Shown in pieces: positions 8,668 through 52,467 of a DNA stretch of 64,000 nt. The stretch spans positions 320,001 to 384,000 of the forward strand of contig VMGC01000001.1 of NCBI GenBank assembly GCA_007376385.1, written 5' to 3'. The stretch comes from Parcubacteria group bacterium Gr01-1014_8. Its GTDB lineage: Bacteria > Patescibacteriota > Minisyncoccia > Phycocordibacterales > UBA2100. Every line of letters begins with the position of its first letter. The first letter of the stretch is position 1. A program made the position numbers and the translations under genes. Below the pieces are notes generated by a model that saw nothing but the letters and a program-made list of their open reading frames with translations, made no database searches and was not told the origin of the DNA.

Positions 8668-10398
8668 ATGAAAGAGTATTTGCATTCTCACGCTCTCGCG
8701 CTCGGGCTTGCGATCGTGGTTGGCATTGTGACGGTCATGCCGATGATTCTGGCGCCGATCTCCCTTGGCGCTGATTACAAGGGCATTCATTATCTTCCTC
8801 TGAATGACGAGGACATTTATCTTGCCCGCATTCACGAGATCCTCGACGGGCACTATAGCGTTACGTCACCGTTTCTGTATGACTATAAGGATGCTGCAAT
8901 GTTATGGCCTCCCATCAACGAATGGCTCTATGCTCTTCCAGCGTTCTTATTCGGGCTCTCAGCCGTCGTTGTCGCGAGCAAGTTTCTGCTCCCCGCTGGG
9001 TTGTTTTTCTTGATATACCTTTTGAGCCGGAAGCTCCTTGGTGAAGAAGACAAGTTAGCTGAAGTATGTGCGATCGCAGCGGGGCTTGTCGCAACGCTCG
9101 GTATTGTATTTGTCGATTACACATACATGGCGTGGTTTTTTGCCGGGAAAGAACACGCCCCGGTCATGTGGACGCGCCTTGTGAATCCCATAACGGGCGG
9201 TGTTGAACTCTTTGCGTTCGTCACGTTACTCTGGTTTATCTGGGAAAGAAAGCGTCCGTATGCATTCGTCGCAGCTGGTTTTCTCCTCGCGCTCATGATC
9301 GGTTACTATTTCGCGTTCGGTATGGGCCTCGCGACCCTTGGCGTGCTGTTTTTTATCGCTCTTCTTCGCAAGGAATTTGCGGTAGCGCGTGAATTTGCAT
9401 ATGTCGGGGTCATTTCCTTACTTCTTGATGCGTGGATATGGTATAACGTTCTCTTTTCGATCGGCGGCGAGGAAGGGAAGGCGCTGGCGATGCGCAACGG
9501 CATGTTTTTTACCCACGAACTTGTCCTCAACAAGGCGCTTTTTCTTGCGACTACCTTCGTCGCGCTTTGTTATCTGTACACTTACGTATATAAGAACAAT
9601 AAGCAGTTTCTGCGCAGCTGGCTCTTTATATTCGCGCTTCTTGGGGCGTCGTGGCTTGCGTTCAATCAACAAGTGATAACGGGTCGGCAGATATGGTATC
9701 ACCACTTCGTGCAATACACCGTGCCCTTATCAATGCTCTCTGTTATTGCGGCGTCATACTTTACGTTGCGCTTCAGCATGCCTCGGCTTTTGCGTTTCGG
9801 CATGCTCGGTATCATCGTTGTGAGTCTCGCCTATGGAGTCTCGTGCATAGGAAGTTATGTCAGGGATATACCGCTATGGTTTGCTGGAGACCAGCGGTAC
9901 GGGGACCTGATGGCATGGCTGAACGAGAATGCGCCGGAGGATTGCGTCGTGCTGGACGTGCAGAACGAAGAGTTTCTCGCTCGCGCAATTCCGGCGTATA
10001 CCGCGTGCAATACATATTTTTCGGCGGTAACGTATGCCGGCATCCCCGAGGAACGCCTTGTGCATAATTTTCTTCTTCGTATGGTCTTGGATGGCACACA
10101 TAAGACGCAGGCCCTCGAATACCTACGTATGCATTCCGAAGATGTGCGAGCAGATTTCTATCCGGATTGGAACGCCATGTTCGGTCACGATGCAACTCCA
10201 TGGATCGAAGGTCGCATGCAAGCGCTCGAGAGTGAATATCAAACATTTGCCGAGGTGCCGCTTAAAGAACAGATGCAAAAATATCGTGTTGACTACGTAA
10301 TTTCAACAGAGGAATTAACCCCGAAGTTGATAGGATCTCTGAATGCAACAAAGCTCGATTCAGCGGGAGTATATCGGATCTATACGCTCGAGAAATGA
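8668..10398 (+). CDS. Large polytopic membrane protein with C-terminal extracytoplasmic domain; possible GT-C/YfhO-like glycosyl- or polymer-modifying enzyme
   Basis: Start placed at MKEYLHSH (8668), just after the upstream stop. About 12 TM helices, then a ~200-aa soluble C-terminal domain. No named motif recognised. Confidence 0.45.
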   Translation: MKEYLHSHALALGLAIVVGIVTVMPMILAPISLGADYKGIHYLPLNDEDIYLARIHEILDGHYSVTSPFLYDYKDAAMLWPPINEWLYALPAFLFGLSAVVVASKFLLPAGLFFLIYLLSRKLLGEEDKLAEVCAIAAGLVATLGIVFVDYTYMAWFFAGKEHAPVMWTRLVNPITGGVELFAFVTLLWFIWERKRPYAFVAAGFLLALMIGYYFAFGMGLATLGVLFFIALLRKEFAVAREFAYVGVISLLLDAWIWYNVLFSIGGEEGKALAMRNGMFFTHELVLNKALFLATTFVALCYLYTYVYKNNKQFLRSWLFIFALLGASWLAFNQQVITGRQIWYHHFVQYTVPLSMLSVIAASYFTLRFSMPRLLRFGMLGIIVVSLAYGVSCIGSYVRDIPLWFAGDQRYGDLMAWLNENAPEDCVVLDVQNEEFLARAIPAYTACNTYFSAVTYAGIPEERLVHNFLLRMVLDGTHKTQALEYLRMHSEDVRADFYPDWNAMFGHDATPWIEGRMQALESEYQTFAEVPLKEQMQKYRVDYVISTEELTPKLIGSLNATKLDSAGVYRIYTLEK

Positions 10399-12614
10399 CA
10401 GTGTTACAATGGGCGACACCTATGACTCTCGAGAAAGTGCTACGCTGGATCGCGATCATCGGGATTTTCGCGCTACCGTTCATTGTTCTCATCGTCTCGC
10501 GCTCGCTCTTTTTTCCGTTCATCACCGGAAAAAACTTTGCATTCCGCATTATTGTCGAGATAGTCGGCGGGGCGTGGGTGGCGCTCGCGCTCGTAAACCC
10601 GCTCTATAGGCCGAGGCGCTCATGGGTCTTGCTGGCGTTTACGCTGTTTGTCGTGTTGATAGGGATCTCAGATGCATTTGGCGTCAATCCGTTCAAGAGC
10701 TTTTGGAGCAATTATGAGCGCATGGAAGGATGGGTAACGCTTGCTCATCTCCTGGTGTATCTTGTTGCGGCCGTATCAATTCTAAACACGGAGCAATTAT
10801 GGAAACGGTGGTGGCATACATCGCTCGGCGTTTCAGTTCTTGTCGCATTTCACGGACTTTTTCAGCTTTTGGGATTCATAACTATCAATCAGGGGGGTGT
10901 TCGGCTCGATGCAACTTTTGGCAATGCGACATATCTCGGCGTGTACATGCTTTTCAATGTCTTTGTTGCGGCGCTCTTTCTTTCGCGTGCATGGAACGAG
11001 CATCCCCGCGAGCGCTTCATGTACTCGTCGCTCTACGGCGCACTGATCATTCTTGATACGTTCATACTGTTTTTCACCTCGACACGCGGTGCCATCCTCG
11101 GTCTCATCGGGGGCGTCTTATTCTCAGCAGCGCTGCTTATTGTGCTTTCGCCGAAATCACGCACGGCGTGGTATGCGGGGGCAGCTATCGCGGGGCTTGT
11201 CGTCCTTGCCGGCATGTTTTTACTCGTGAAAGATCAGGCATGGGTGCAAGGGATCGAGCCGTTGCACCGCCTGGCGTCCATCGCTGACGAGGGTGTTCCC
11301 GGTGCGCGGGTCATGAACTGGGGGATGGCGATGCAGGGATTTAAAGAGAGGCCTATCTTAGGTTGGGGCCAAGAGAATTATGCGGTCGTGTTCGACAAAT
11401 ACTATGACCCGCAGATGTTCGGGCAGGAGCCATGGTTTGACCGCGTACACAATATCATTTTCGACTGGCTCATTGCTGGCGGCCTGCTTGGCCTACTTCT
11501 GTATCTTGGCATATATGTCTTCGCGCTTCTTGCCATTTGGCGTTCGGGAGGATTCGCGCAATACGAACGCGCCATTCTTACGGGGCTTTTTGCCGGGTAC
11601 TTTTTCTATCTTATTTTTACATTCGATAACATTACAAGTTATCTTATGTTTGTTTCCCTTCTCGCGTACATCACGATGCGTTCTTCTTTTGACGCGAGGC
11701 CGATCTTTGATCAGATACTTCCCAAAAACACGCTTCCTTTCTTCGCGGTGCTTGCAGTTTTTCTTGTATCAGGTCTTTCATGGTCTGTGAACGCACATGC
11801 GCTCTTGGCGAACAAGCTCATCATTCTTGCTCTCTCGCCGCATTCGGAGGGCGCTTCAAAAAATTTGGAATATTTCAAAGCATCTATCGCGTACGGAACA
11901 TATGGGACGCAAGAAGCGAGAGAGCATTTATCGCAGACAGCAGCTCAGGCCATTCAGAGCACGGGGGTTCCTCTCGATGTACGCAGGGGATTTTTAGAGA
12001 CGGCAGCAAAGGAGATGAGCACGCAGGCCGAGGACTCGCCCCTCAATGCGCGTTTTCCATTTTTTCTAGGCGTACTTCTGGACTCAGCGGGGGACTATAA
12101 CAATGCAAAGCTGGCGCTCGAAAGAGCGAGAGAACTCTCTCCCAATAAACAAGCGATACTATTTGAGCTGGGCCTCAATGCACTCGCTCGGGGTGATAAT
12201 GCGGCAGCACTCAGCATTTTTGAGAGCGCATACAAACTAGCATCGAATTTTGCGGAAGCGCGAACATTCTACACTGCTGTTGCTATCCACACGGATGATC
12301 AAGCAGTTGAAGATCAGATGATACGCGTCATGGTTGAGAATGATCAGGCATTGGAGCCGCGTATTCTCTCGGCCTATGCTTCAAAAAACAGATACGATAA
12401 GATCGCAGCGCTTGCAGCCGCCCAGATACAAATGCATCCAGACGATGTTCAAGCGCATGTGACGTACTCCGCTGCGCTTTATAAAATAGGGAATGTGGAA
12501 GACGCTGTTCGCTCCCTGGAAGAGCTGAAACGCGTCATACCAGGTGCTGCCGCACAGGCAGATTCGTTGATAGCAGATATGTTGAACGGGACGTTAAAGG
12601 TTGGTCAGCAGTAG
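10395..12614 (+). CDS. O-antigen ligase/Wzy_C-family membrane protein with C-terminal TPR repeats
   Basis: Many TM helices. HNIIFDWLIAGGLLGLLLYLGIYVFAL matches the Wzy_C core (HN-x-Y-L-x-x-L-x-E-x-G). The C-terminal ~300 aa are TPR-like, Ala/Leu-rich repeats. Confidence 0.7.
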   Translation: MTVLQWATPMTLEKVLRWIAIIGIFALPFIVLIVSRSLFFPFITGKNFAFRIIVEIVGGAWVALALVNPLYRPRRSWVLLAFTLFVVLIGISDAFGVNPFKSFWSNYERMEGWVTLAHLLVYLVAAVSILNTEQLWKRWWHTSLGVSVLVAFHGLFQLLGFITINQGGVRLDATFGNATYLGVYMLFNVFVAALFLSRAWNEHPRERFMYSSLYGALIILDTFILFFTSTRGAILGLIGGVLFSAALLIVLSPKSRTAWYAGAAIAGLVVLAGMFLLVKDQAWVQGIEPLHRLASIADEGVPGARVMNWGMAMQGFKERPILGWGQENYAVVFDKYYDPQMFGQEPWFDRVHNIIFDWLIAGGLLGLLLYLGIYVFALLAIWRSGGFAQYERAILTGLFAGYFFYLIFTFDNITSYLMFVSLLAYITMRSSFDARPIFDQILPKNTLPFFAVLAVFLVSGLSWSVNAHALLANKLIILALSPHSEGASKNLEYFKASIAYGTYGTQEAREHLSQTAAQAIQSTGVPLDVRRGFLETAAKEMSTQAEDSPLNARFPFFLGVLLDSAGDYNNAKLALERARELSPNKQAILFELGLNALARGDNAAALSIFESAYKLASNFAEARTFYTAVAIHTDDQAVEDQMIRVMVENDQALEPRILSAYASKNRYDKIAALAAAQIQMHPDDVQAHVTYSAALYKIGNVEDAVRSLEELKRVIPGAAAQADSLIADMLNGTLKVGQQ

Positions 12615-12654
12615 ACAAAGATAGAAAGATGATATAATTGCGCGGTGAGTGCCA

Positions 12655-12690
12655 TTGCCTGTCTGCGTGCAGTACGCACAGGCAGAAAAG
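12655..12690 (-). repeat. Partial inverted copy of the 3' hairpin part of intergenic repeat family R
   Basis: gcctgtctgcgtgca...cgcacaggcag matches the reverse complement of cctgcctgtgcgatgcacgcagacaggc found in the 16111..16243 and 52335..52467 copies. Confidence 0.5.
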
Positions 12691-12741
12691 ATGGCGTCTC
12701 TCTAGAAAGTCGCGTAGATTCCCCCTCCGGGGGGATTTACG

Positions 12742-12787
12742 TTTTTGTACATTGCCCGAACATTGTTCGAGTGAGGCAGTACAAAAA
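12742..12787. repeat. Nested perfect palindromes (tttttgtac/gtacaaaaa enclosing cgaacattgttcg)
   Basis: Read directly: outer 9-nt arms at 12742-12750 and 12779-12787, and an inner 13-nt palindrome at 12757-12769. The adjacent 14-nt direct repeat gatttacgtttttg occurs at 12734 and again at 12953. Confidence 0.4.
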
Positions 12788-13266
12788 GGTAGATCCGGCC
12801 GCAGCTGGGATCCCCGCGTGCGGGGAGGCGAGGCGTGCCTACGAGCGACCTAGTTTTCTTATGAGCATAGCGAATTAGAAAACTGGAAGTACTCGTAGTG
12901 GTGCACATAGTATTTTGAAGCGGCATCGCGACAAAATACTTAGTGACTCGGAGATTTACGTTTTTGGATGATACACCCCGTGAGATACAACATATATACA
13001 TTTTGCTCGTGGGTGGTTTTGTTGCTAACACCTGATTACATCGACAGTTCTAATGCGCTATCTCATGGGGTACACTATTTGCATAAGGACCCAGTGTGGA
13101 GGGCGGCGGCACTCACATAGACTTTCACTTTGGAGCTCGCACCCGCCTTCCGCATTGGGTCTTTGCAAGTTAGACATTAGATAATGGAAATTAGACAAAA
13201 GAAATTTACAAAATAATTTTTTGCTTATTAAATCTAATTTCTAACTTCCACTTTCTATATATAAAG

Positions 13267-13275
13267 TTATCCACA
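13267..13275 (+). promoter_or_regulatory. Consensus DnaA box TTATCCACA inside a ~150-bp AT-rich island
   Basis: Exact TTATCCACA lies inside 13180-13330, which is about 25% GC against about 50% GC in the flanks. Only one box was found. Confidence 0.2.
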
Positions 13276-13400
13276 GTATCGTCGAATAAAACATATTAAT
13301 CACGCAATGAGTGCAATAATAAAAAAAACGCATCTCGCGTAACTTGAATCTGCGAATGGTGCGGGTCGAATGTTTAGTCGCAGGGGCATCTAAAAAATCT

Positions 13401-13454
13401 ATGGCAAAGAAAAAGAAAGCAAAGAAAAAGGCAAAGCGATCGAAGAGACGCTAG
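13401..13454 (+). CDS. 17-codon Lys/Arg-rich micro-ORF (MAKKKKAKKKAKRSKRR) directly upstream of secA
   Basis: ATG preceded by gcagggg (SD-like) 11 nt upstream. Stop lies 6 nt before the GTG that opens the secA reading frame. Coding status unproven. Confidence 0.15.
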   Translation: MAKKKKAKKKAKRSKRR

Positions 13455-13556
13455 TCAGGCGTGCTTCGAAAGAAAAGACCCTCCATTGCGGAGGGTCTTT
13501 TCGTGCGCGACCAGAGACTGCGAAAATCAGTCATTAGTGTTAGGATGTGCCTCTGT

Positions 13557-16094: not shown

Positions 16095-16110
16095 TCCCGC
16101 CGCTTAAATT

Positions 16111-16243
16111 TATCTGTCGAGGATAGCAAGCGAAATGCGAAAGCGCAGGTTTCGCATTTCCGAGCGACACAGACAGCAAAGGTTCAAAGCCCCGCGGCTT
16201 GCCTGCCTGTGCGATGCACGCAGACAGGCCGCGGAATTTGGGA
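16111..16243 (+). repeat. Intergenic repeat element R, copy A (133 nt), immediately 3' of secA
   Basis: Identical over 133 nt to 52335..52467 apart from 1 nt. Contains a perfect 11-bp hairpin gaaatgcgaaa/tttcgcatttc and the second hairpin gcctgcctgtgcg/cacgcagacaggc. Followed by ccgaggaacctttat, which precedes the copy at 52335. Confidence 0.75.
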
Positions 16244-16387
16244 CCGAGGAACCTTTATATTCCGTAAGAAAATAGTGTATGCCCCATGAGATAGATCATC
16301 TAGATCGGTGATGCATATAGTTCAGTAGTAACATATGAGATTCCTGAAAAAGTGGCGTGAATTTATCTCACGGGGTATGCTTCCGGC

Positions 16388-17833
16388 ATGTCATACAAGG
16401 CAACGATAGGGCTTGAAATTCATGCAGAATTGAAGACAAGTACAAAAATGTTTTGCTCGTCTCAGAACAACGCCGACGAAACAAGAGCGAATGTCCACGT
16501 CTGCCCCATTTGTTTGGCGCATCCGGGTACGCTGCCTGTCATCAATAGGGAAGCGGTGCGGCAGGTGCTCCGCGTCGGGGTTGCGCTTAAAGGTACGTTG
16601 GCAGATTACACGGAATTTGACCGCAAGAATTATTTTTATCCAGATCTGCCTAAGGGCTACCAATTATCACAGTATGAATTTCCCCTTGTGTCAGGCGGAA
16701 GTTTAAATGGAGTAGACATCACGCGAGTTCACTTAGAAGAGGACACAGCGAGTTCAATTCATGACGAGATGACAGGGGAAACCCTTATTGATTACAATCG
16801 CGCGGGGGTGCCTTTGATGGAACTCGTTACGGAGCCAGTGATCCATAGCGCAAAGGAAGCAGGTGATTTTGGCCGAGAATTACAATTGCTCTTACGTTAT
16901 CTAGGTGCATCAGACGCTGACATGGAAAAAGGGCGCATGCGACTTGAAGCAAATATTTCTGTCTCAAATTCCGACGAACTAGGCACGAAGGTCGAAATAA
17001 AGAATATTAACTCTTTCCGGGCTATGGAGCGCGCGGTTGAACACGAGATAGCTAGGCAGACAGATATCCTCGATATGGGGCAAAAAATAGCTCAAGAGAC
17101 TCGCGGATGGGATGACTCTAAACAAGCGACGTTCAGCCAGCGTGTGAAGGAGGGTAGTGCGGATTATCGTTACTTTCCAGATCCAGATCTGCCGAGCCTC
17201 AAACTTTCGCAGATCGAGGAATTCTCAGAAGATGCGCTTAAAAAGACCCTTCCCGAGTTGCCCAGTGAGAGACGCCAGCGGTATATACATGCAGGCATTA
17301 AAGCTGCGGATGCTGAGCAATTTGCTGCATACCCACGCCTGGCAGACTTTATGGACAAAGTGATAGTTGGGAACATCAAGGATGAGGCATTTATACAACG
17401 TGCGACTAACTACATAGTGAACGACCTCGTGAGCATTATCCGAGACATCAATAAACGAGATACGGATTTGCGAGGCGAGATACCTATCTCCTCTATGAAC
17501 TTTACAAAGATTATGCGTATGCTCGGTGATAGAAGGATCTCGTCGAGGGGTGCGAAGGACCTGCTATCCTTGGTCATAAAGGAAGGCCGCGATCCGGAAA
17601 CGGTTGCGTCGGAGCGCGGTCTTCTTATAGATGCGGCCGGACTGGACGTCGAATCTGCGGTTCACAATGTTCTCACAAGGAATAAAGAAGTAGTTGCGGA
17701 CTATTTGTCCGGGAAGCAGAATGCGCTTCAATATTTGATCGGACAATGCATGAAAGAGCTCAAAGGTGCAGTTGAACCGACGGAGCTAAGAGTGATATTG
17801 ATGCAAACAATCTCATCTCGTAGCGCTACTTAA
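16388..17833 (+). CDS. gatB: Asp-tRNA(Asn)/Glu-tRNA(Gln) amidotransferase subunit B
   Basis: MSYKATIGLEIHAELKT...VHVCPICLAHPGTLPVIN...KNYFYPDLPKGYQ are canonical GatB motifs; 481 aa. Confidence 0.9.
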   Translation: MSYKATIGLEIHAELKTSTKMFCSSQNNADETRANVHVCPICLAHPGTLPVINREAVRQVLRVGVALKGTLADYTEFDRKNYFYPDLPKGYQLSQYEFPLVSGGSLNGVDITRVHLEEDTASSIHDEMTGETLIDYNRAGVPLMELVTEPVIHSAKEAGDFGRELQLLLRYLGASDADMEKGRMRLEANISVSNSDELGTKVEIKNINSFRAMERAVEHEIARQTDILDMGQKIAQETRGWDDSKQATFSQRVKEGSADYRYFPDPDLPSLKLSQIEEFSEDALKKTLPELPSERRQRYIHAGIKAADAEQFAAYPRLADFMDKVIVGNIKDEAFIQRATNYIVNDLVSIIRDINKRDTDLRGEIPISSMNFTKIMRMLGDRRISSRGAKDLLSLVIKEGRDPETVASERGLLIDAAGLDVESAVHNVLTRNKEVVADYLSGKQNALQYLIGQCMKELKGAVEPTELRVILMQTISSRSAT

Positions 17834-18386
17834 CTTCTTATAGCTCGTTGACCGTCCGTGCTGTTGTTGCACCAATGTTTGTTTGTGTATGTATCTTCCC
17901 AACGCTGAATAAATGAATTGCCTTGATTCGTGCAACTAAGTTAGCGGCTTCTCGAACCTTGGCCGACATGAAAGACATAAGAGATAATGTGGGCCCACAC
18001 AATTCCATCACTTCACCACGCAGAAATATTCACTCTCCGTGTTTATATGTACTTATGGGGGTACATGTTGAATTGTTGGCCATGCACGAATACGGCAATA
18101 CACTTATAGCTCGCATAATTGCACTGGGGGCTTACTTAATAATATTCATGTGTAAGTCTCGTTTATCTCTGAGTTTTTCTGACGTGTTACTCGAAGCTTA
18201 AATGAATTCGGCAGGGACGTCTTTGATGCGTATTTATTCGGGCCTGGTCCATGTGCATATACGTTCTTGAAAGTCATGAAAAAGGCTGCAAAATTTACTG
18301 AAATCCTGTCATTTTGGTCGAAAATACAGCCATTTTTGACTTTTTTGACTAATTATTGCGACCCAAGGCGGGGGGAAACAGCGCTA

Positions 18387-18440
18387 ACATAGCAAGGTCG
18401 GCGGTTGTCCACGCAAGGTCGGACCTTGCTTATATCTGCG
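18387..18440 (+). repeat. REP-like hairpin repeats (caaggtcgg...ccttg) at 5' end of transposase-like gene
   Basis: acatagcaaggtcggcggttgtccacgcaaggtcggaccttgc shares the motif caaggtcggacc with the repeats flanking the second transposase-like gene at 32819-32861 and 33573-33693. Confidence 0.5.
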
Positions 18441-19130
18441 TATTATACTGATTTGGTGGCAAAACGACGAAAAGTCGCCTATATAGCACCCTTTGATAGT
18501 GATAAGTACTATCACGTGCATAACGACGGAATTGATAGGCGAATACTATTCAGCTCCAAGCAGGATTTTGACCGCTTTGAAGCATATTTGTATCTGCTGA
18601 ATTCCACTGAAAGCCCGCGTGCGGCTAATTTTTTTACAGGCAATCGCCAGAACGAAATATTTCAAACGGGGAGAGGCGATAAATTAATAGCACTCGGAGC
18701 TTATTCGATCACGCCGCATGAATTTCACTTGCTTGCTGTGCCTCTGGTCGATGGGGGGATGGGGAAATTCATGCAGAAGCTTCAGACTGGATACACGATG
18801 TACTTCAATAGCAAGTACCAGCGTATGGGACGCATATTCCAGTCCTCATATAAGGCGGAATCAGCTCGATCAGCCGAGCATCTAAAATATATGTTCTGTT
18901 ATATTCATTTAAATCCTGCGCAGATCTTTGACAAAGAATGGGATTCGACAAACGAGAGGAGCGGACTTGCAACACACATATTGAGGGCAATGAATTATCG
19001 CTACTCGAGCGCAAATGAATATACCTCTCAAAAATTTATCATCACGACGCCGCATGAATTTCCGCCCTACATCAGAAGGGTGAGAGATGCGCGCGCGTAC
19101 TTGAAACTTTGGTCAAAGTTTAAAGAATAG
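18405..19130 (+). CDS. IS200/IS605-family Y1 (HUH) transposase-like protein, RAYT-like; variant HUH motif (HEFH)
   Basis: YYHVHNDGIDRRILF is the N-terminal Y1_Tnp motif. ITPHEFHLLAV aligns to PNHFHLML of the paralog at 32875..33561. FMQKLQTGYTMYFN and FQSSYKA carry the catalytic-Tyr region. About 50% identity to the second copy. Confidence 0.7.
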   Translation: MSTQGRTLLISAYYTDLVAKRRKVAYIAPFDSDKYYHVHNDGIDRRILFSSKQDFDRFEAYLYLLNSTESPRAANFFTGNRQNEIFQTGRGDKLIALGAYSITPHEFHLLAVPLVDGGMGKFMQKLQTGYTMYFNSKYQRMGRIFQSSYKAESARSAEHLKYMFCYIHLNPAQIFDKEWDSTNERSGLATHILRAMNYRYSSANEYTSQKFIITTPHEFPPYIRRVRDARAYLKLWSKFKE

Positions 19131-19320
19131 ACGCACATGCTCATAAAATCTATGCCGGAGTGAATCTGGTACAGTAGCGTCTTGACGTATTTAGAAAGCG
19201 TTGTGTAAGACTCTGTAGGTAAAGCCGGTCGCCTTCACGGCAGTAGACTCTGAGGATATCTCCACAGAGTACGCCAGATATGGAAGACAGTAGCCGTCAG
19301 GGCTAGTATAATCTCGGCAT

Positions 19321-20274
19321 ATGGCTCATGAGATAGTTCTCGGCGATACGACATACATTTCTTCAAAGCGCGCAGCCGAGATTACTGGATATGCCCAAGA
19401 TTATATTGGCCAACTCGCGCGTGCGGGGAAGATAATTGCACGAAGAATTGGAGGCCTTTGGTATGTTCTCGAAGAGTCTTTAAACAACTATAAGGCTGTG
19501 GCAGAACTTTATGTAGCGACTCCACCTCGGATGGATGATTCATACGCTTCTGCCTCTAAGGTTGCTGACACCCTTATTTCATTTGATGGAAAAGAGTATG
19601 TTTCAGCATCAGAAGCGGCTAGGCAGACTGCATATCACCAAGACTATATCGGGCAGCTAGCACGTACCGGCAGGATTTTGTCTAAGCAAGTCGGAGCGCG
19701 TTGGTTCGTCGAATTAAAAGGTCTAAGGGCTCACAAAGCCGAAAAAGATGCTCTCTTGGCTGCGGTGCAGCGTGAATCAGTGGGCCTTGTCCGCCCTGCA
19801 AAGAGCGGTCCCGATGCCGACAACTACAAGGTGCATTTCACATATACAGCTGATGAGAGGGAACTCCTGCCGTCTCTCCTTCGCAAAGATGCCTCAGGCA
19901 GCAATATTCAGCAGGATGCGGCCGAGTTAGAGCACGTAATACCGATTCGTATTGTGCGTGTTCCTCAAAATCCGGCAACAAGCAGCTATTCAGCTCGATC
20001 TGCTACTCGCTCCGTGCGGTTGCGAGTAAGAAAACCCTTATATTATGGTAGCTTATCCGCCGTGCTGGTGACTGTAGTGATTGTCATCGCATTTCATATA
20101 AATATACTAAACGCTGTCCCGATATTCGCGAATACCAACAAGTCGGGCGTTTTAAAAAACACGGCTCTTGCGGGAATAATTATGAACGTCGCAGCGGACT
20201 TTGCGGATCTCGCTCATGAATTGTTAGGGAATAAAGTCATTTACAATCGAGGTTCATACAAGCCCGATTTCTAG
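19321..20274 (+). CDS. Tail-anchored membrane protein with two tandem HTH_17/excisionase(MerR)-like motifs
   Basis: YISSKRAAEITGYAQDYIGQLARAGKIIARRIGGLWYV and YVSASEAARQTAYHQDYIGQLARTGRILSKQVGARWFV are two copies of the same motif. A single TM helix LYYGSLSAVLVTVVIVIAFHINIL sits near the C-terminus, preceded by RLRVRKP (positive-inside). The same motif is at the N-terminus of the downstream 4051-aa protein. Confidence 0.55.
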   Translation: MAHEIVLGDTTYISSKRAAEITGYAQDYIGQLARAGKIIARRIGGLWYVLEESLNNYKAVAELYVATPPRMDDSYASASKVADTLISFDGKEYVSASEAARQTAYHQDYIGQLARTGRILSKQVGARWFVELKGLRAHKAEKDALLAAVQRESVGLVRPAKSGPDADNYKVHFTYTADERELLPSLLRKDASGSNIQQDAAELEHVIPIRIVRVPQNPATSSYSARSATRSVRLRVRKPLYYGSLSAVLVTVVIVIAFHINILNAVPIFANTNKSGVLKNTALAGIIMNVAADFADLAHELLGNKVIYNRGSYKPDF

Positions 20275-20597: not shown

Positions 20598-23500
20598 ATG
20601 TCTGATGAAATCTTTTTTGATGGTGTTCGATATATTTCGGCGCAGGAAGCTGCGACGTCGTTAGGTTTTTCGCGAGATTACATTGCGAGGCTTGCTCGAA
20701 TAGGCAAAGTCAAAGGCCGACAAATAGGAAAGAATTGGTACGTCGAATTTCGCTCAGTTCAAACGTTTGTCCTTGAGCAGGAGTACTTGCAGGGAAAGCG
20801 TAGAAAGGAGCTTGCGGAGAAGCGAGTCTTCGAATACCGCAAGCAGGTTGGCAGTACGGACGAGAGATCGAGCGATATTGTTGCCCCAGTTATTTTTGCC
20901 GATGCTGTATCAGTTTCTGCAAAGCAAAACAAGAGACATGCGGCTATTAAGGCGATGCTCGCGCGTGCAATGTCTCGCCGCGCCGACTTGAAGGTTCTGG
21001 CGCATGCGAACCGCGTTCATACGCCCTCGTTTTTTTCTGTGACGCCTGCCGTTGAGTTTCTGCACAAACTCACTGCTCTCATTACAGCGTTTGTACTGAC
21101 TTTTGGCGCGTATGCTTTTGTTAATGCGGACTACGCTCATTTTGCACTCGATTCTATACGCTCTGCTTCACGGAGTGTTGTTGCTGTCCCGAAATTGGTC
21201 TGGGGAGGTGATGCAGCACGTTGGGGTTCAGATACAGGTGCGCAACTCGCAGCTGTTGCATTGCAGACAGCTCAGTCGGCAAACCAAGCTGAATCATCCA
21301 TTACTTCATTCATGTCATCTGCCGCAAGAAATTTCAACCTTCACGTTAATGACTTATTGTACGGAGTTATTTATCCGAACATTCCTGGCATGGGTTCTTT
21401 CGCGTTCTCATCTGCGCGTGGCCGCGTCGATATTCAAATTGTTCCGTATCGCAGCGATGCGCCTGCAGCAAGATCGGCACCTGCTCCCTTGATCCGAACA
21501 GCAGTGTCAGCTCCAACAACTGTCATCAATCAACCGATAGTGGAACGCATCAGAGAGACGAAGAGCGTTGTCACGCTCGGCGGGATCAGTGAAGAGCTCC
21601 TAGCATCCAAGTTGCTTGAGCTCGACACCAAACTTTCTTCTCGCATGTTGTCGCTCACCTCTTCTAACGCAACGAGCATTACCCAGGTATATAACACCGT
21701 CGGCCAAATGGGTCGTATTGAACATTTAGATGATCTTGATCTTACAAACCCAACGATTACGAGAGGCACGTTGACGAACGTGAGGATCTCATCTCTTTCA
21801 GCCCCTCTCACAATCTCTGACGGCGGCACTGGAACCTCTAGCGCTCCTACGTATGGAAAAGTTCTCTTAGGAAATTCGAGCGGTGCGTATGATCTCGTCG
21901 CGACCTCATCGCTGGGTGTCGGCGGAACACCCGGCGGCTCGAGCACGCAGGTGCAATTTAACGATAGCGGTGCTTTCGGTGCGGATTCCACATTTACTTT
22001 CAACAGCACCAGCAATCTTCTTTCTTTCTCGAGCGCGTCATCTTCGTTGCAGTCTATTTTTGATCGCCTGTATGTCGGCGGAACGGCGACGACGACCATC
22101 TTCGGCTCCGCGACTTCCACCTTCGGGGCTGGTATCGAGACAACTGCCTTGAACGTTACTTCGAATAGCGCGAGCAGCACATTCGCAAACGGTATCTCGC
22201 TCTCTGCCGGGTGTTTCCGCGACGCGAGCGGGGCATGTCTGCAGAGCGCGACATTTGCGTATCTCTTCCCATCGGACGCAACCACAACCAAACTCACGTT
22301 CTCTGGCGGTTTGATCTCGCTCGCTTCAACGACGATCGGCAATGGCACACAAGCGGGAGGACTCACGATCTCCGGCGGCGCGACGACGACAGGGAATCTC
22401 TTGGTGCAGGGCAATGCGACGACGACAAACTTGGCAGTGTCTGGCACCGCATCGTCATCTGCCCTCGTCGCATCAAATTCATTTACGTTCTCGAATATAA
22501 CAGGCTTCCTCAAGGCGACCGCCGGCGTTGTCGCAACGGCCGCCATCAATCTCGCCTCCGACATCACCGGCATTCTTCCTGCTGGAAATGGCGGCACGGG
22601 ATGGGGCAATATCGCAGCGAACACGATCGTGCTTGGGAACGGCACGGGAGCTATCGCAACGACGAGCGCCGGCACCAACGGCCAGATGCTCGCGCTTGTT
22701 TCGGGAGTGCCGACGTGGACCGCGACGACCACATTCTCAGCCCCACTTGTATTTTTCGCAGGCAATGTCTCGATCGCAGCCTCGAATGGCAGCACAGACG
22801 GCTATCTCACTTCCGCTGACTGGACGCTCTTCAACAACAAAGTCTCTTCTTCTTCGCTCTCGACATTCACGGCAGCCTTCAAAGACTGGAACATTACGAC
22901 AAACACATTCGGCCAGTCCTCTCTCGCTCCAACAACAACGCAAAACATCGCAGTCACAGGCGTCGGCACATCCACATTCGCCGGAGGATTAGAAGCGTGG
23001 AGACAAATAGGCGCTCCATACTTCAACGCTACAAGTTCATCCGCAACGTCAACCTTCGCTGGTGGATTAAATGTGCTCGCCATTAACCAAACTGGTTCTG
23101 CGACATCGACGTTTGCGAATGGTTTGCAGCTTTCGAATGGTTGTATCCGATTACCCTCAGGGAGCTGCTTGGCATCTGTCGCAAATTCTTCGATTGATGA
23201 TCTTAGCGACGTCACTATCACCGCCGCCGCATACGGCGACCTTTTGATGCACAACGGGACTGCATGGGTTGATACTGCCACTAGTTCGCTTGGAATATTC
23301 ATTTCAGACACCGTTGGGACACTTGCCGTGGGGAGAGGAGGCACGGGGCTATCATCGACACCAACGTACGGCCAACTGCTCGTCGGAAATGCTTCGAGCG
23401 GCTACACGCTTTCCGCGACATCAACGCTCGGCATCGCGCTCTCTGACACCATAGGAACGCTGGCGGCGACACGGGGTGGTACAGGACTCTCATCCATCAC

Positions 23501-26500
23501 CAACAACCAACTTCTTCTTGGCGGCGCAGGAAACACGGTCACACAGATCGCCACTTCTTCGCTAAACCTTCTCACGACCGACATAATCGAAGGTTCAAGG
23601 CTTTTCTATACGGACAACCGTGTAGACACATACATACATGGGTCAACCACAATTCCAAAGACATACACAGCAAACACGTTCACGGGGGCGAACACATTCA
23701 ACAGTACTTTTACTCTCGGCACGCTCAATGGTCCCTTGCACGCAAACGCCGGCGTCGTCGGTGCGACGACATCTGTTCTCGCGATCTACGGCGGAACCGG
23801 GCAGACCTCGTATTCAACGGGTGACATTCTCTACGCATCCGGCGCAGCCGCACTCTCGAAACTCGGGATCGGCGGTGCGGGAGAGGTTCTAAAAATATCG
23901 GGAGGTGTCCCGACGTGGGGAACTGATTTGACTTCCGGAGGTGGCGCGGATGGCACATGGTCGACGACTACCTCACAAGTCTCTGGCACGTTGATCAATT
24001 ACCCTAACAATGCATCCGACATCGTTGCCATCGGCTCCACGGCGACGACATCTGCGGAGTACTGGTTTGACCCGAATACGACGATTGCCTATCTTTCAGG
24101 AAAAGTTGGCATCAGCACCACCTCCCCCTACTCAAAGTTAACGTTGTGGGGGAGCGCCTCACTATTTGAGGCAGTGAACACATCTTCGACAACGATCTTT
24201 TCAATAGGCCAATCAGGCGCGACAACAACGAATCTCGGAATTTCGGGAATAGCAAGTTCCCTGCTCAAAACAACATCTACCGGAGGAGTGGTTGCTGCGA
24301 TACCCGACACCGATTACCTCAATACCGCAAGTTCGATCGAATTACTTGGCGACGTCGCCGCGATGACGGAGAATTACGGCGATCTCTTGTATTGGAATGG
24401 CTCCGCGTGGGCTGATCTTGCGACGTCATCGCTTGGGATTGCGATCAGTGACACCACGGGAACACTTGCAGTTGCACGAGGCGGCACTGGTCAAACCACA
24501 TTCTCCTCCTCGCAACTTCTCTACGGAAACGGAACCAACGCGCTTTCGTCTGTCGCAACCTCCTCACTCTCCGCAGGAACCGGTGTCACGTTCTCTGGAA
24601 CTGCCGGCTCTCTCGTTGGAGGCACTGCACTCACCATCAATACACCGTGGACCATCTCCGGAAACAACATCTACAACAACAACATTGCAAATGCCGCCAT
24701 CGGCACATCAACTCCCTACGCCACCACCACGATCTGGGGTAACACTGCTTCAAAGATATTTGAAGTCGTTGCAAACGCTTCATCCACCGTATTCTCTGTT
24801 GCACAAAGTGGAGCTACTACAACCAACCTCGGCATTACTGGCGTCACCAATTCGCTCTTGAAGACCACATCAACCGGTGGAGTCGTTGCAGCGGTCGCAG
24901 GCACGGATTACGCGACACTGTCACAAACATTTGGAAAAGCGTGGGAGATCGACGGTAACGGCTTTACCGGATTCCTTGCACCGACAACAACGCAGAAAGT
25001 GTGGATCGGGCAGGCGTCGTCGACGCTTCTATCGGTGAATGGCCCTGCATACTTTGGCTCAACCGCAACCTCCTCATTCTCAACCGCCGGCGTCCTCACG
25101 CTTGCCACCGATCTCGCAGTCACCGAAGGAGGCACCGGAGCTTCCACGCTCACCGGCCTTCTCCAAGGAAACGGCACGTCGGCGTTCACCGCCATCACTG
25201 ATTCATCCACGGTGGGACAGATACTCCGTGTGACTGGTGCATCAACATACGCCTGGGGAGCACTGAACCTTGCAGACACTGACGCCATCACCGGAACGCT
25301 TCCCATCTCCAACGGAGGCACCAACAACACCACCTACTCCACCAACGCGCTCCTCTACTTTGACGGAACATCCATCACTGCTACTTCCACCAGACCCCTC
25401 TACGTCGGCGCTATCAATGCCACCACAACAGCCACCTCCACTTTTGCAGGAGGCATCTCTGTTCTCAACTTCGCACAGACAGGAACAGCAACAAGCACGC
25501 TCGCAAACGGGCTCACCTTAACCGGTGGCTGTGTCATGGTGAACGGAAACTGCATCTCACCCGTTGGGAACTCCTCCATCGAAGATTTGAACGACGTTGC
25601 TGCGATGACGGAGAACTATGGAGACCTTCTTGGATGGAACGGCAGCACGTGGACTGACTTTGCCACCACCTCACTCTTCACCGGTTCCAACGGGCAGATG
25701 CTTGCATACGCGAATGGCGGGTGGACGGGAGTTGCAACAACAACAGCCGGCACTGGTCTCACATACACCGGCTCTGCGTTCAATGTTGACCTTGGTACCT
25801 CTATTAGCGCAGCTGAGATCGCAGACGGCGATCACGGCGACTTCACATACACCAGCGGTGTTGCAGCCATCGATGCAAACGCCGTCACCCTCGGCACCGA
25901 CACAACAGGGAACTACGTTGCAACACTCGCAGATTCAGGCGGAGGAACACTCACCATCTCCAACTCAGGCAGCGAGACAGCGGCAGTGACAGCCTCCCTC
26001 AACCTTGGCAACGCCAACATCTGGACTGGCAAGCAGAACTTCTTTGGTTCTGCATCGTCGACGCTGTTCTCAGCGAACTGGCTCAAAGTCGGTCAAACAG
26101 CATCAACCACATTCGATTCCGCTGGCAACGCAACCATCGGCGGCACCTTGAACGTCACCGGTCAAACTACACTTGCCACTTCACTCACTGGATTACTCAA
26201 AGCAACCGCAGGAGTTGTCTCCTCTGCAACAGAAGGCACTGACTACCTCTCCAATGCACTCCGCGATTGGTCAGTACAAGGCAACGGATACCTTGCACCA
26301 ACGACAACGAGAGGAATCATCGTTGTTGCATCATCCACCATCGGCGCGGGAGGACAAGCGACGGGGCTCACCATTTCAGGAGGCGCGACGACGACGGGGA
26401 ATGCGTATTTTGCAGGGAATGTGGGTGTTGGGACAGCTGCACCAAGTCAAAAATTGCAAGTTGTTAACGGCGCTATTGATATCAACACCGACGACCAGTT

Positions 26501-29500
26501 CTTGTACTTCGGTAGCGGGGACGCCGGCATCAGGGAAAGCGGTGCCAATTTGAAATTTGAGACGTATACGGGCGCTGCACTCACCGAAAAAATGAGAATT
26601 ACTGGCGCAGGCAACGTCGGCATCGGGACCACCACTCCCGCAACCCTCCTCTCCATCGCCGGCACGAGCGGCCTCTTTGCCTCCACGACCGCCACCTCCA
26701 CCTTCCAAGGCGGCGGGATTAACTTGCTCACGGCGGCGGGGAATACGGGATGCTTTGCGGTGAATGGGACGTGTCTTTCCAATACCGCTTCCGGCATCGT
26801 CGGAAGCGGCACCACCGGACAATTTCCGTACTATGCCGCCAACGGCACGACTTTGACGGCGACCTCGACACTTTTCGTCTCGACCGCGAGCAATGTTGGG
26901 ATCGGTGCCACCTCTCCCGCAGCAAAGTTAGACGTCGAAGGTTCCGGTGCGGTCTTGACCGACATCATGGTAGGCAACTCACAGGCCAATGCAAACTTCG
27001 GTATTTCCGCGGCAGGAGTTCCCCACCTTTGGACGAACAATGCCTCGTGGCCGCTTGTGCTCGGTGTCGGTGGCGCAGAGAAAATGAGAGTGCACACGGA
27101 TGGAAACGTAGGGATCGGAGCAGGTGCAACGGGTCCCGGGGCACTCCTCACGGTTGACTCTGGTGCAGCGTCTCTCACGGACATCTTGGTCGGCAACTCG
27201 CAAGCGAACGCGAATTTCGGAATCTCCGCAGCGGGCGTAGCCCATCTGTGGTCAAATAATTCAAGTTGGCCTCTTGCGTTCGGCATTGGAGCCGCGGAAA
27301 ATATGCGAATCCACACGAACGGCAACGTGGGGCTCGGGAACACCTCCCCCTCCTACAAACTCGACGTCGCAGGGTTCATCAACACCGACCAATTCTCCGG
27401 CTACAAGCAGAACGGCACGACCATTCTCTATTCATCTTCGACGCTTGCCACGATGTTCGGCGGCTACCAGGCCGGCAATGGTCAAGTGCAATCAGGAACC
27501 GGACTCTACAATACCGCGTTTGGCTATCAGGCGCTCTTGAGCGCCACGTCGTCTAGCAGAAGCACAGCGGTCGGCTTTTCAGCGCTCGCAAGTCAGGCGA
27601 ATGCCAATGGCAACGATGCGCGTAATACCGCAGTTGGTTCCCAAGCGCTCGGCGGCACAACGTACGGTTACTACAACACAGCTGTCGGCTCTGATGCTCT
27701 CGCTGCCAACACGACCGGATACTTCAACAGCGCATTTGGCCAGGGCGCGCTCACTGGCAATACGACCGGCCGCGATAACATTGCAATTGGCTACAATTCC
27801 GTGAGTCAAAGTACAGCCGCCCTCGAAAATATAGGTATCGGCAACTCCTCGCTTTCAGGAGCGTCGCTCACGGGGGCAGACAACATCGCTATCGGTCGGC
27901 AGGCTGGGAGCGCCATGTCGAGCGGGAGTTACAACATACTGATTGGCCAATATCTCTACAACAGCGGCACCGTCTTTACTGGCTCAAACAACATCATCAT
28001 CGGGCGCGACATCGGCTCGACCGCATCTCCCTTGGTTTCGACGACAACAAGCAACGCGCTCAACATCGGCAACTTGATTTTCGCGACCAGTCTCGGCACG
28101 GCGGACACTCTTTCGACGGGTAATGTGGGTATTGGAACAGCGGCACCGAATTATCAACTTTCAAACAACTCCGCGAGTAATAACCTGGATTCGGGTTCCA
28201 CGGGGCTCTCGACCGCAAGTAGTTTCAACTGGGCGAACAACGGCTCCGGCTACGGTGCAGGATTGTATAACGCAAGCGCCAATTCGGATGCAAACGGGCT
28301 GTTGGTAAAAATTCGCGGTACGGCCTCTACCAACAAAATTCTCTCGCTCGACACGGGCACGACGCAAGCCGGCGCGGGAACAAATGTGCTGACGGTATTA
28401 GGAAGCGGCAACGTCGGCATTGGGACGACGAGTCCGCGCAGCGCCCTCTATTTCCAGGCGAACAGTAGCGATCCATCGTTAACATCATGGACAGGCATAG
28501 GGACGATGCGCGCTAGTACTGGTGTAGAACTTGCGATGGGTGCAGACGATACGACACCTTTCGGCGCGTGGCTGCAAACGAAAGACAGCACAAATGGCGG
28601 TACATCCTATCCACTGCTCCTCAATCCTCTCGGCGGCAACGTTGGCATCGGGACGACTACGCCTCAAACGGCGTTGCATGTAAACGGTATTCTCGCGGCA
28701 ACGCCAAGCTACGGCTTTTACTGGTACAACGGGGCAACATTCAAAGGCGCACTCAAGCATAACTCATCCAACGATAACCTTGAGATATACACCGCCTCTG
28801 ATGGCAGCACGCCGCGGCTCACAGTCCAAAGTTCTTCCGGCAACGTCGGTATCGGGACGACCAGTCCCGTGTCGATACTTGCTGTTGCTGGTGCCAATCC
28901 TGTACTTACCCTCAATCAAACGAGTAGCGGTAATGTTTCTGGCTTAAAGATAACGAATGGAGTAAATACGCTAGGCACATTTACAGTAGCAATAGATACA
29001 GGCGAGGTCAGGATAGGTGGTACGTCTAGCGGCGGTTATTATGATACTTTCTACGCCGATGGTTCGGAAAGGATGAGGATTACAGCAGCAGGCAACGTCG
29101 GCATCGGGACGACGACGCCGCAGTGGCTTTTGAATCCGACTTCGGCAAGCGCATCACAACTTGCCCTTTCGGCGGGGGCGGGCATCGCGCAATGGACGTT
29201 TAGGAATGCAGGCGGGAATTTGTATCTCTCAACAACTACCGTTGCAGGAACCGCAACGACATCGATAAGCGCGCTTGAGATTGCGGGCGGAGGATTAGGA
29301 ACGACAACCGTGAGAGGGCTAAACATCAGCGCTGGCGCAACATCAACGTCTAATGTGGGCTTCTCACTCACGAGCGGATGCTTTGCAACGCCCGCGGGCT
29401 GTATCTCGGGCGTTGGCGATTCTTCCATCGAAGCATTGAACGACGTTGCTGCGATGACGAAAAACTTCGGTGACTTACTGTATTGGAATGGCACAACATG

Positions 29501-32818: not shown

Positions 32819-32861
32819 CATCTCAAGGTCATATCGAGGTCGATATCAAGGTCGGACCTCG
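32819..32861 (+). repeat. REP-like repeat cluster, left flank of transposase-like gene
   Basis: atctcaaggtcatatcgaggtcgatatcaaggtcggacctcg: tandem atatc-a/gagg-tcg units with the hairpin cgaggtc/gacctcg. Confidence 0.55.
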
Positions 32862-32874: not shown

Positions 32875-33561
32875 TCACGGTGCCGCCGATTCCACGCGGA
32901 AGTCGAGCCATTCCGAGACCTGCGATTTAAAGTCGAGAGGCGAATCAAAGTACTCCGACAGCGCTGCGGCGTTCACGATGCGGCTCTCCAGACGTTTCTC
33001 ACGAGTGTAATCGTGAAAGCTCGACCAACGGTATCCGTCGAGGAATTTTTCCGCCGCGCGCCGGTTTGCGATGCCGGTTTCTTTCCAAGTCGGCTCGATG
33101 AGCTTGACGGGGTTCAGATGGATATACGAAACGAGGTATTTGAAGTATCGGTCGTCTGCCACGTGCGTCGCCTTATATTTCCCCTGAAAAAGGACGCCGC
33201 TTCGTTTTTGGCGGGTGTTAAAATACATCGTATACCCGGTTTGGAGCTTCTGCATGAATCGGGAAATACCGCCGTTCCTAATCTCACGAAGCATGAGGTG
33301 GAAGTGATTCGGCATGAGGCAGTGCGCGCATATGTCCACGAGCGGTTTTCCCCGATCAAGCGAGAGAAGATGGGGAAGAGAGGTCTGGATTTCGTTGCTG
33401 ATGTGCACGGTGTTCTCGCCGTTTGCAAGAAACAAAAGCGCGAGAAAGCGCTTATGGTCGGGTACAGAGGTAAAGATTTTCCGTTTTTCAGTGCCGCGGT
33501 TGTAGACATGATACGTCTCATCGACAGTAAACGGTATGCGTCTCATCTTCTGTATTTTCAC
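32875..33561 (-). CDS. IS200/IS605-family Y1 (HUH) transposase-like protein, RAYT-like
   Basis: ETYHVYNRGTEKRKIF; HUH in CLMPNHFHLML; FMQKLQTGYTMYFN; LFQGKYKATHV (Tyr); YIHLNP. Flanked on both sides by similar ~40-nt REP-like repeats in direct orientation. Confidence 0.75.
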   Translation of the reverse strand: MKIQKMRRIPFTVDETYHVYNRGTEKRKIFTSVPDHKRFLALLFLANGENTVHISNEIQTSLPHLLSLDRGKPLVDICAHCLMPNHFHLMLREIRNGGISRFMQKLQTGYTMYFNTRQKRSGVLFQGKYKATHVADDRYFKYLVSYIHLNPVKLIEPTWKETGIANRRAAEKFLDGYRWSSFHDYTREKRLESRIVNAAALSEYFDSPLDFKSQVSEWLDFRVESAAP

Positions 33562-47320: not shown

Positions 47321-47342
47321 CGAGTAATTATAGCTCGTAGTA

Positions 47343-47450
47343 AAGGTTCCTCGGAGCAAGCTCCGAGGTATTATGGAGCTCGCTTCGCTCGCGCAGTCTC
47401 GCAGCAGAGCTGCGAGATATTGAACCTGTGTTTGCTCCTCGGCTCGGAAA
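47343..47450 (-). repeat. Intergenic repeat family, L-part copy C (inverted, with 46-nt internal insertion)
   Basis: The reverse complement gives atttccgagccgaggagcaaacacaggttcaata[46-nt insert]cctcggagcttgctccgaggaaccttt, matching 52281-52334. Contains the perfect hairpin cctcggagc-ttg-ctccgagg. Confidence 0.6.
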
Positions 47451-47571
47451 TGCAAAAGTGCTCTTTTGCGTTTCTCTCGCAACGCTCGCAAATAAAGCGC
47501 ATGAGGGCGACCCATTTATGCGTATCGTTCTTCGCATCGTATTTGCTTGACATAGGCGTGCAGAATATGAT

Positions 47572-52272: not shown

Positions 52273-52280
52273 AGAGCCTC

Positions 52281-52467
52281 TTTTATTTCCGAGCCGAGGA
52301 GCAAACACAGGTTCAATACCTCGGAGCTTGCTCCGAGGAACCTTTATCTGTCGAGGATAGCAAGCGAAATGCGAAAGTGCAGGTTTCGCATTTCCGAGCG
52401 ACACAGACAGCAAAGGTTCAAAGCCCCGCGGCTTGCCTGCCTGTGCGATGCACGCAGACAGGCCGCG
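52281..52467 (+). repeat. Intergenic repeat element, most complete copy B (L-part 52281-52334 + R 52335-52467)
   Basis: R is identical to 16111-16243 apart from 1 nt. The L-part matches the inverted copy at 47343-47450. R overlaps the last 41 codons of the minus-strand gene P8. Confidence 0.75.

Follow-up and report, generated by a model that had tools for sequence, protein, structure and literature searches.

A TTTAT-bounded, two-domain hairpin repeat family of Patescibacteria with likeness to IS200/IS605-derived and REP elements

REP and REPIN elements, which together with RAYT proteins are known mainly from Proteobacteria, are short multicopy extragenic hairpin elements consisting of a 20- to 40-nt palindrome or an inverted doublet. 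Their copies within a genome resemble each other, and the associated low-copy genes for Y1 HUH (IS200-like) proteins are flanked by small palindromes. The IS200/IS605-derived PATEs lack terminal inverted repeats and target duplications, carry subterminal hairpins, and lie 3' of a fixed pentanucleotide, and IS200/IS605 elements typically show an orientation bias tied to replication. Mosaic repeats such as the Escherichia coli BIMEs and pneumococcal BOX are modular, and the classical miniature inverted-repeat transposable elements (MITEs; Correia, ERIC, RUP) are small, non-coding, and dispersed and may overlap gene ends and supply stop codons. Genomes of the candidate phyla radiation (CPR)/Patescibacteria are tiny and gene-dense; no description of repeat elements in these organisms, nor of the element reported here, was found in the literature. 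We analyzed a 64,000-nt stretch of Parcubacteria group bacterium Gr01-1014_8 (contig VMGC01000001.1, positions 320,001 to 384,000), termed the window, to which all coordinates refer unless a locus number is prefixed. A preliminary description of this DNA had reported a novel intergenic repeat composed of a unit, R, and an adjacent L-part. The best-supported reading of our results is that these sequences belong to a non-autonomous, TTTAT-targeting hairpin element of the IS200/IS605-REP kind that is distributed across Patescibacteria and on which the abundant Y1 proteins of the CPR may act. As far as Rfam and the literature show, the element was previously uncatalogued.

The family was searched for with a strict 18-base linker common to L and R (TTTCCGAGC-N12-ANAGGTTCAA), the scan covering one genome per GTDB species, JGI metagenomes, and viral contigs. 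There were 28 matches in the GTDB species genomes, 18 of them with the full architecture, and most of these 18 copies were in metagenome-assembled genomes labelled Kaiserbacteria, Doudnabacteria, Saccharibacteria, Komeilibacteria, Paceibacterota, Parcubacteria, or Patescibacteria. The remaining ten consisted of the bare pattern in other phyla, which is about the number expected by chance. The JGI metagenomes yielded 66 contigs, 38 holding a full copy, and a total of 62 copies (51 distinct) was collected. Several copies were present in some genomes (L012/L013/L018, L010/L017, and L016/L019), and such within-genome copies had private variants in common, for example, the near-identical P1 hairpins of L010 and L017. 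Collections of viral contigs, phages, and plasmids contained no match to the element, and a phage or plasmid origin was rejected on these grounds and on the absence of phage genes, as judged with PHROGs, from a 36-kb block described below.

The element is 110 to 200 nt long, starts directly after TTTAT, and ends in TTTAT. The canonical unit reads TTTAT followed by TAGCGACGTAGAGCGAG(A/T)GAAA, a variable hairpin, TTTCCGAGCCGAGGAGCTAATAC, AGGTTCAATAC, an optional module (...GCGAGCGAAGCGAGCTCC...AATAC), CCTCGGAGC-loop-GCTCCGAGG, and AACCTTTAT. RNAalifold analysis of eight short-form copies gave two domains, S1 (TATTAGC/GCTAATA) with P1 and S2 (AGGTTC/GAACCT) with P3, and the resulting alignment was used to build a covariance model, R1. 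Stem S1 (TTAGC/GCTAA and compensated variants) encloses the conserved unpaired strands GACGTAGAGCGAG ... CCGAGCCGAGGAG together with the variable hairpin P1, and S2 encloses one or more hairpins. The pairing statistics were obtained from the R1 matches and hence from an alignment fitted to the model itself. Among the 51 distinct copies, 94.7% of the structure cells paired, compared with 37 to 49% when the partners were slid; changes on both sides were seen in 25 of 37 pairs, and the observed values were reached by none of 500 shuffles. The preliminary description had asked for a covariation check of aligned copies, and these values back the two-domain fold. Rfam 15 (4,227 families) gave no match in the window at the gathering score and none for the element at an E value of ≤1 in five loci with canonical copies. 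ARAGORN detected no tRNA or tmRNA in the window, and the "T-loop-like" motif GGTTCAA of the element has no tRNA context. The claim of a genuine structured multicopy intergenic repeat family with no counterpart in Rfam or in the literature was upheld. The family resembles BIMEs and BOX in being modular: hairpin modules may be added to a conserved scaffold, copies are of a short or a long form, and one hairpin occurs in isolation (12657-12690). It has no sequence relation to BIMEs and BOX and differs from them in its covariation-backed two-stem scaffold and fixed TTTAT boundary.

The ends of the element were informative as to its nature. Conservation began and ended sharply at TTTAT, which preceded nearly all of the 51 distinct copies. 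In the window, R starts immediately after the TTTAT in which an L copy ends, so that a single TTTAT is common to both. As with PATEs, the element thus lies 3' of a fixed pentanucleotide (as judged from filled sites), ends in the same sequence, and occurs in tandem after the end of another copy; it also has subterminal hairpins and neither terminal inverted repeats nor target duplications. The TAA stop codon of a convergent gene lay inside the terminal TTTAT in 6 of 23 copies, as would be expected if the target had overlapped the stop codon and the element's own end restored it, and one further open reading frame (ORF) ran 36 nt into the element. No similarity was detected between the 5' end (TAGCGACGTAGAG) and the reverse complement of the 3' end (GGTTCCTCGGAGC). 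Like classical MITEs, the element is small, non-coding, and dispersed and may overlap gene ends and supply stop codons, but a classical MITE was rejected because of the lack of inverted termini; the constant TTTAT flank, moreover, leaves no variable target duplication, and the R-type copies described below (L031 and L040) have TTTAT at the left and TTTCAT as their own right end. An all-versus-all comparison of the ORFs within 3 kb of the 51 distinct copies detected no recurrent protein family. Contigs of other assemblies break at the elements, and elements were missing from a conserved gene neighborhood (gatB-RAYT1; see below) of three relatives.

The strength of the covariation and the near invariance of the unpaired strands across phyla would also be accounted for by a functional structured RNA, either a multicopy small RNA (sRNA) or a cis-acting module of 3' or 5' untranslated regions involved in processing, stability, or termination, with loops binding a conserved CPR protein. 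Consistent with such a role, S2 and the UUUAUU behind it look like a terminator stem and its U tract, and S2 is kept in R by means of G-U pairs (AGGUUC/GAAUUU). An RNA of this kind, however, had no Rfam match even at the relaxed E value given above; no sigma-70-like promoter was detected in the three window loci and no terminator-like site at their elements, and conservation was bounded exactly by TTTAT with no conserved promoter upstream. Orientation relative to neighboring genes was about 50:50, with no bias. Stem mismatches of the G-T and A-C types numbered 56 and 41, respectively, with similar results for S1, P1, and S2, indicating that complementarity was kept on both strands. Copies also overlap gene ends and are truncated or nested. 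The sRNA or terminator role suggested in the preliminary description was not sustained by these analyses, and a functional RNA is considered rather unlikely. The lack of terminal inverted repeats, of a recurrent neighbor, and of any asymmetry in orientation or wobble pairing, combined with the TTTAT site, points to a non-autonomous DNA element and not to an RNA gene; the family is, in our estimate, probably mobile DNA. Two further classes of candidate were tried and rejected. Small ribozymes and group II intron domain 5 have lengths and cores that do not fit (by comparison with their consensus sequences), and Rfam was silent. A template/variable repeat pair of a diversity-generating retroelement would call for adenine-specific mismatches of the proper direction, which the single mismatch is not, and conservation of the element across the CPR also speaks against it.

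Within the window, family members were located at 16105-16263, at 52245-52352 followed by 52348-52478, and at 47335-47501 on the minus strand. The R sequence at 16109-16244 was found again at 52343-52478 (136 nt; offset of 36,234; one mismatch, C at 16144 and T at 52378). The reported recurrence of R with one mismatch was thus correct, but the second interval had been placed about 10 nt too low, at 52335-52467. The two perfect stems that had been noted, gaaatgcgaaa/tttcgcatttc (11 bp) and cctcggagc/gctccgagg, were both present, and comparison of folding energies with shuffles gave z values of −3.65 for the region of the first R copy and −5.30 for that of L plus the second R copy. The first copy, R copy A (16109-16243, plus strand), scored 49.7 bits with R1 over 16105-16263, a match that includes the adjoining 15-mer. 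Its flanking target-like TTTAT occupies 16109-16113, and the body, from 16114 onward, consists of S1 (CTGTC/GACAG) around P1 (the 11-bp stem), the 5' strand of S2 (AAAGGTTC), and a long GC-rich hairpin, up to a truncation point at ...GGAATTTGGGA. The 15-mer CCGAGGAACCTTTAT (plus strand) lies 3' of this copy, at 16244-16258, and 5' of the other, at 52333-52347. It comprises the 3' arm of the terminal hairpin, the S2 3' strand GAACCT, and TTTAT and is, therefore, the conserved 3' end of the canonical element and not the terminal direct repeat of a MITE-like element for which it had been taken. Its fusion to the truncated copy A supplies a substitute S2 3' strand and generates a chimeric yet complete two-domain copy.

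The L-part is a short-form canonical copy (52245-52347, plus strand; 53.5 bits with R1 over 52245-52352), of which the portion 52266-52347 is recognizable. Its degenerate 5' half includes the stop codon (52270-52272) of the gene at 51073-52272, and the copy ends in GGAACCTTTAT. R copy B (52348-52478, plus strand) begins right after this TTTAT and stops at the same truncation point as copy A, without a substitute S2 3' strand. Its reverse complement forms the last ∼44 codons and the stop codon of the ORF at 52344-53894 (minus strand), replacing the native 3' end of that gene; the counterpart of this ORF in another assembly (L031) encodes 490 amino acids (aa) with its own C terminus. A full-length, long-form canonical copy at 47340-47496 (minus strand; 80.7 bits with R1 over 47335-47501) is located between divergent genes and carries the optional internal module GCGAGCGAAGCGAGCTCC. 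Both canonical copies of the window have the S1 variant TTTGC/GCAAA, which is specific to this genome. In agreement with the preliminary description, the L-part (52285-52346) recurs inverted at 47341-47458, with 44 nt at 95% and 32 nt at 100% identity separated by an extra module of ∼46 nt, and a fragment of the 3' hairpin of R recurs inverted at 12657-12685 (a 15-nt exact match and an 11-mer). The latter is part of an isolated hairpin (12657-12690; strand not assigned) ∼40 nt after the stop codon of the ORF at 10395-12614. The count of at least four loci held for the family in the form of four copies at three loci plus this one hairpin, but R itself occurs only twice.

A longer version of R was detected downstream of secA in ENA assembly ERZ27284378 (L031:12553-12759). 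This full R-type element of ∼200 nt extends 66 nt beyond R, with two more hairpins, to TTGAAACCTTTCAT, which closes S2, and has the two-domain fold of the family (z = −5.45). A second R-type copy, in an unrelated metagenome (L040:416-511), ends in AAAGGTTCAAACCTTTCAT, a minimal R-type end. R fits the R1 model through compensatory changes, S1 having become CTGTC/GACAG and the P1 stem being altered but retained. R is, therefore, the first 136 nt of an element that is complete elsewhere rather than a self-contained unit with its own family, and this divergent, truncated R-type copy very probably belongs to the same family as the L-part. Since both window copies stop at the same internal point, they are copies of each other and not independent insertions.

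The two R copies and two 15-mers bracket a block of 36,089 nt (16259-52347, plus strand) containing gatB, two genes for Y1 transposase-like proteins, and genes for a 4,051-aa protein, Lnt, and two sulfatases. Contig k139_22030 of ERZ27284378 (L029 and L032; 36,210 nt) corresponds to window 16259-52347 with 100% DNA identity. The contig starts and ends with the same 139 nt (= k), the junction being ...GGAACCTTTAT|attccg...gatB, and this exact overlap indicates that it is a closed circle in the assembly graph. Run SRR8863434 also contained the circular junction, in one of its Logan contigs. At 36,071 nt, the circle falls 18 nt short of the window segment (36,089 nt); an 18-nt tandem repeat (TAYTACTCGCAGTCGACC) with at least three units in coding region 36021-36086 is a plausible site of this difference. 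Contig k139_338890 (258 kb) carries secA, the full R-type element, 223 nt that are not in the window and that include the native end of the cupredoxin-like gene, and then the sequence from window position 52478 onward. The single R of the other assembly is matched exactly by R copy B, the one difference lying in copy A. The near-identity of copies 36 kb apart had been put down to recent mobility or selection. Given the common truncation point, the circular form of the bracketed block elsewhere, and the single longer R after secA there, the near-identity reflects one rearrangement and not two transpositions.

At the level of the assemblies, the observed circle with its junction GGAACCTTTAT|attccg is exactly what would be released if the window were cut or recombined at its two TTTAT-terminated 15-mers. 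This result, in combination with the contig overlap of exactly k, the matching junction in the Logan contig, and the presence within the block of two Y1 proteins and an HTH_17 protein (excisionase-like fold), speaks for an alternative in which attachment or recombination takes place at the elements, or at least at their conserved 3' end CCGAGGAACCTTTAT. The 36-kb block would then be excisable and integrate by site-specific recombination at this sequence, in a way comparable to the use of tRNA gene 3' ends by integrative elements, and R would have been duplicated within the junctions. Pfam and PHROGs searches of 20 ORFs of the block (the 4,051-aa ORF excepted) detected no integrase of the tyrosine or serine recombinase type and no phage genes, the only relevant matches being Y1_Tnp and HTH_17, and the gene order around gatB is conserved in three relatives, so that the block looks chromosomal. 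By these sequence comparisons, the block does not appear to be an obvious foreign element. The chromosome left by such a release (R, 15-mer, R) also differs from that of the other assembly, in which the "empty" arrangement (secA, full R, 223 nt, cupredoxin gene) is not the expected excision product, and dispersed copies in other phyla are left unexplained. An attachment-site function is, in our view, improbable.

It was also considered that the second R copy and its junctions might be an assembly artefact or a rare haplotype, R being single copy at this location in the real genome. Two independent assemblies of DNA that is 100% identical disagree exactly at the elements, contigs break inside elements, and the 516-aa chimeric ORF ending in R had no exact match in a gene index. 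The window junctions (GGGA|CCGAGG, TTTAT|CTGTC, and GGGA|CGCATAACC), however, have no common k-mer long enough to mislead a de Bruijn assembler; hence, the window-specific junctions should derive from real reads, and a simple assembler error is unlikely. We regard this explanation as very improbable, and the reality of the family is independent of it.

The Y1 genes of the block were examined as a possible source of a mobilizing enzyme. RAYT2 (32875-33561, minus strand) is a Y1 HUH transposase-like (RAYT-like) gene scoring 35.7 bits with Pfam Y1_Tnp, above the cut-off of 23; its best NCBIfam match was REP_Tyr_transpos with 43.6 bits, under the cut-off of 80. The product has the HUH motif NHFHL and the tyrosine motif YIHLNP. 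There were 7,306 homologues at an E value of ≤1e-10, and all of those with a named source were from CPR groups. The gene is flanked by palindromes of sequence AAGGTCGGACCT at 32848, 33592, and 33680. RAYT1 (18456-19130, plus strand) gave a weaker match of 18 bits, its product is 35% identical to that of RAYT2, and a palindrome, GCAAGGTCGGACCTTGC, lies upstream at 18413-18429 (listed as an NN-AAGGT-NNN-ACCTT-NN site at 18415). The order gatB, (a 23S_rRNA_IVP protein), RAYT1-like, HTH_17, and a giant protein (window 16388-20274) was kept in L107, L109, and L110. Palindromes of the type NN-AAGGT-NNN-ACCTT-NN flank genes of both RAYT families in the window and in L099, L103, L104, L105, L109, and L110, and the same type adjoins an unrelated RAYT in L016. 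In the 743 kb of sequence examined, AAGGT-N(2-8)-ACCTT occurred at 44 sites, clustered at Y1 genes, compared with about 5 in shuffles. The top of the palindrome hairpin, AGGT/ACCT, equals the core of S2, and the minimal R-type end AAAGGT-TCAA-ACCTTT-CAT resembles such a palindrome with a cleavage-like tail. On the basis of these sequence likenesses, a link between the element and a mobilizing Y1 enzyme may be considered suggestive.

Several side observations were made on the palindromes and the Y1 genes. Around RAYT2 homologues, AAGGT-NNN-ACCTT behaves like a small family of the REP kind, as many as 7 copies being present within 20 kb, and one palindrome is within the Y1 coding region, ∼160 nt from its start (L103:10164, L104:10158, and L105:10161). 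A REP-like palindrome, TACAAGGTCGAACCTTGTA, was found ∼20 nt past the end of a canonical copy in one Patescibacteria genome (L021:7105, L075:1756, and L083:363), the only direct adjacency of a REP-like palindrome and a canonical element that was observed. Genes of the RAYT2 family are convergent with and adjacent to genes for giant surface proteins of 1,600 to 4,900 aa, several with Peptidase_S74; this pairing is conserved between the window (20598-32753, plus strand, with 32875-33561, minus strand) and three other CPR genomes (L099, L103, and L105).

The comparison with REP/REPIN-RAYT systems thus gave likenesses of several kinds. The family consists of multicopy extragenic hairpin elements that resemble each other within a genome, and it looks old and persistent; a RAYT (Y1 HUH) gene, RAYT2, is present in the genome; the Y1 genes are low copy and flanked by small palindromes; and a GTAG motif is located 5' of the hairpin (GACGTAGAGCGAG). 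In contrast to a REP, the unit has two domains, an invariant unpaired core, and dissimilar halves, and is several times longer than a REP palindrome; its Y1 genes are flanked by AAGGT-NNN-ACCTT and not by the element, with the S2 core alone in common, and its hosts are CPR bacteria. As regards PATEs, we found no full-length insertion sequence whose ends match those of the element; palindromes of sequence AAGGTCGGACCT flank the Y1 genes in the window, with only the AGGT/ACCT core in common; the left and right hairpins are dissimilar; and no TnpA or TnpB gene is adjacent. No significant strand bias was seen relative to local GC skew, as measured over short flanks.

A mechanism can be proposed in which the family comprises small non-autonomous DNA elements that would spread as single-stranded hairpin DNA. 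Insertion, on the 3' side of TTTAT, would involve neither terminal inverted repeats nor a target duplication, as with IS200/IS605-derived and REP/REPIN elements, and mobilization would be effected in trans by Y1 (HUH tyrosine) transposase-like proteins. The two R copies would then mark both junctions of a 36-kb block, integrated in the window and present as a circular contig elsewhere, R having been duplicated by one rearrangement at the elements. This full scheme, Y1 link included, is put forward tentatively, as about evenly poised at best. A broader version is unlikely but can be stated: an ancient, phylum-spanning partnership between domesticated Y1 proteins and a two-domain repeat, amounting to a REPIN-like "replicator" outside Proteobacteria, in which TTTAT ends would also be cut sites releasing and re-inserting large blocks, here a 36-kb circle with gatB and both Y1 genes.

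A number of observations weigh against the mobile, Y1-served element that we favor. No R1 match was present within 10 kb of four RAYT2 and three RAYT1 homologues, and a Y1 gene was found at only 1 of the 18 element loci in GTDB genomes (L016, which metagenome locus L074 matches); the flanking of RAYT genes that characterizes REP/RAYT systems is, therefore, provided by the small palindromes alone. The similarity between these palindromes and S2 amounts to 4 to 5 bp and was spotted post hoc. The HUH motif of RAYT1 no longer has its first His (HEFHL), and this replacement, together with the conserved synteny, makes the gene look domesticated rather than mobile. The sign of the local GC skew on the element strand was split 30:21 (P = 0.26; short flanks), so that no bias of the kind associated with IS200/IS605 was seen. 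A search for empty sites by means of homologues of the flanking sulfatase gave no clean empty-versus-filled orthologous pair, the nearest relative being 51% identical. At least one further event, the loss of 223 nt, separates the two arrangements of the block and is not explained by a single event. Finally, about 70 core nucleotides, unpaired strands included, are nearly invariant across CPR phyla; selfish DNA does not usually show such near-identity, which would also be compatible with a functional RNA or with a binding site for a host protein.

Irrespective of how it spreads, the family provides the catalogues of RNAs and repeats with a new entry, a covariation-supported element common to several CPR phyla. 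Its presence accounts for contig breaks in assembled CPR genomes, and for possible mis-joins, and it marks rearrangement hot spots, as exemplified by a 36-kb block with two arrangements and by a gene with a replaced 3' end. The element is also a candidate substrate, open to experiment, for a very large IS200-like protein family (>7,000 homologues at an E value of ≤1e-10). If it were a functional RNA instead, it would be among the most widespread unnamed RNA motifs of the CPR.

Some minor features of the window were recorded. The ORF with the replaced 3' end (52344-53894, minus strand) is one of a set of paralogous genes for cupredoxin-like proteins, the others being at 51073-52272, 50666-51058, and 40128-41636 (minus strand). 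The 4,051-aa ORF contains many diverged repeats with the DNA motif GGCAACGTCGGCATCGGGACGACG, present in about ten copies (22000-32200), and this region has a GC content of 0.54 to 0.56, compared with 0.46 to 0.51 in the rest of the window. Upstream of secA there is an 846-nt gene-free stretch (12615-13460) with several strong hairpins and no Rfam match, in which the motif GATTTACGTTTTTG occurs twice (at about 12733 and 12953) and a tiny Lys/Arg-rich ORF is located at 13402-13455.

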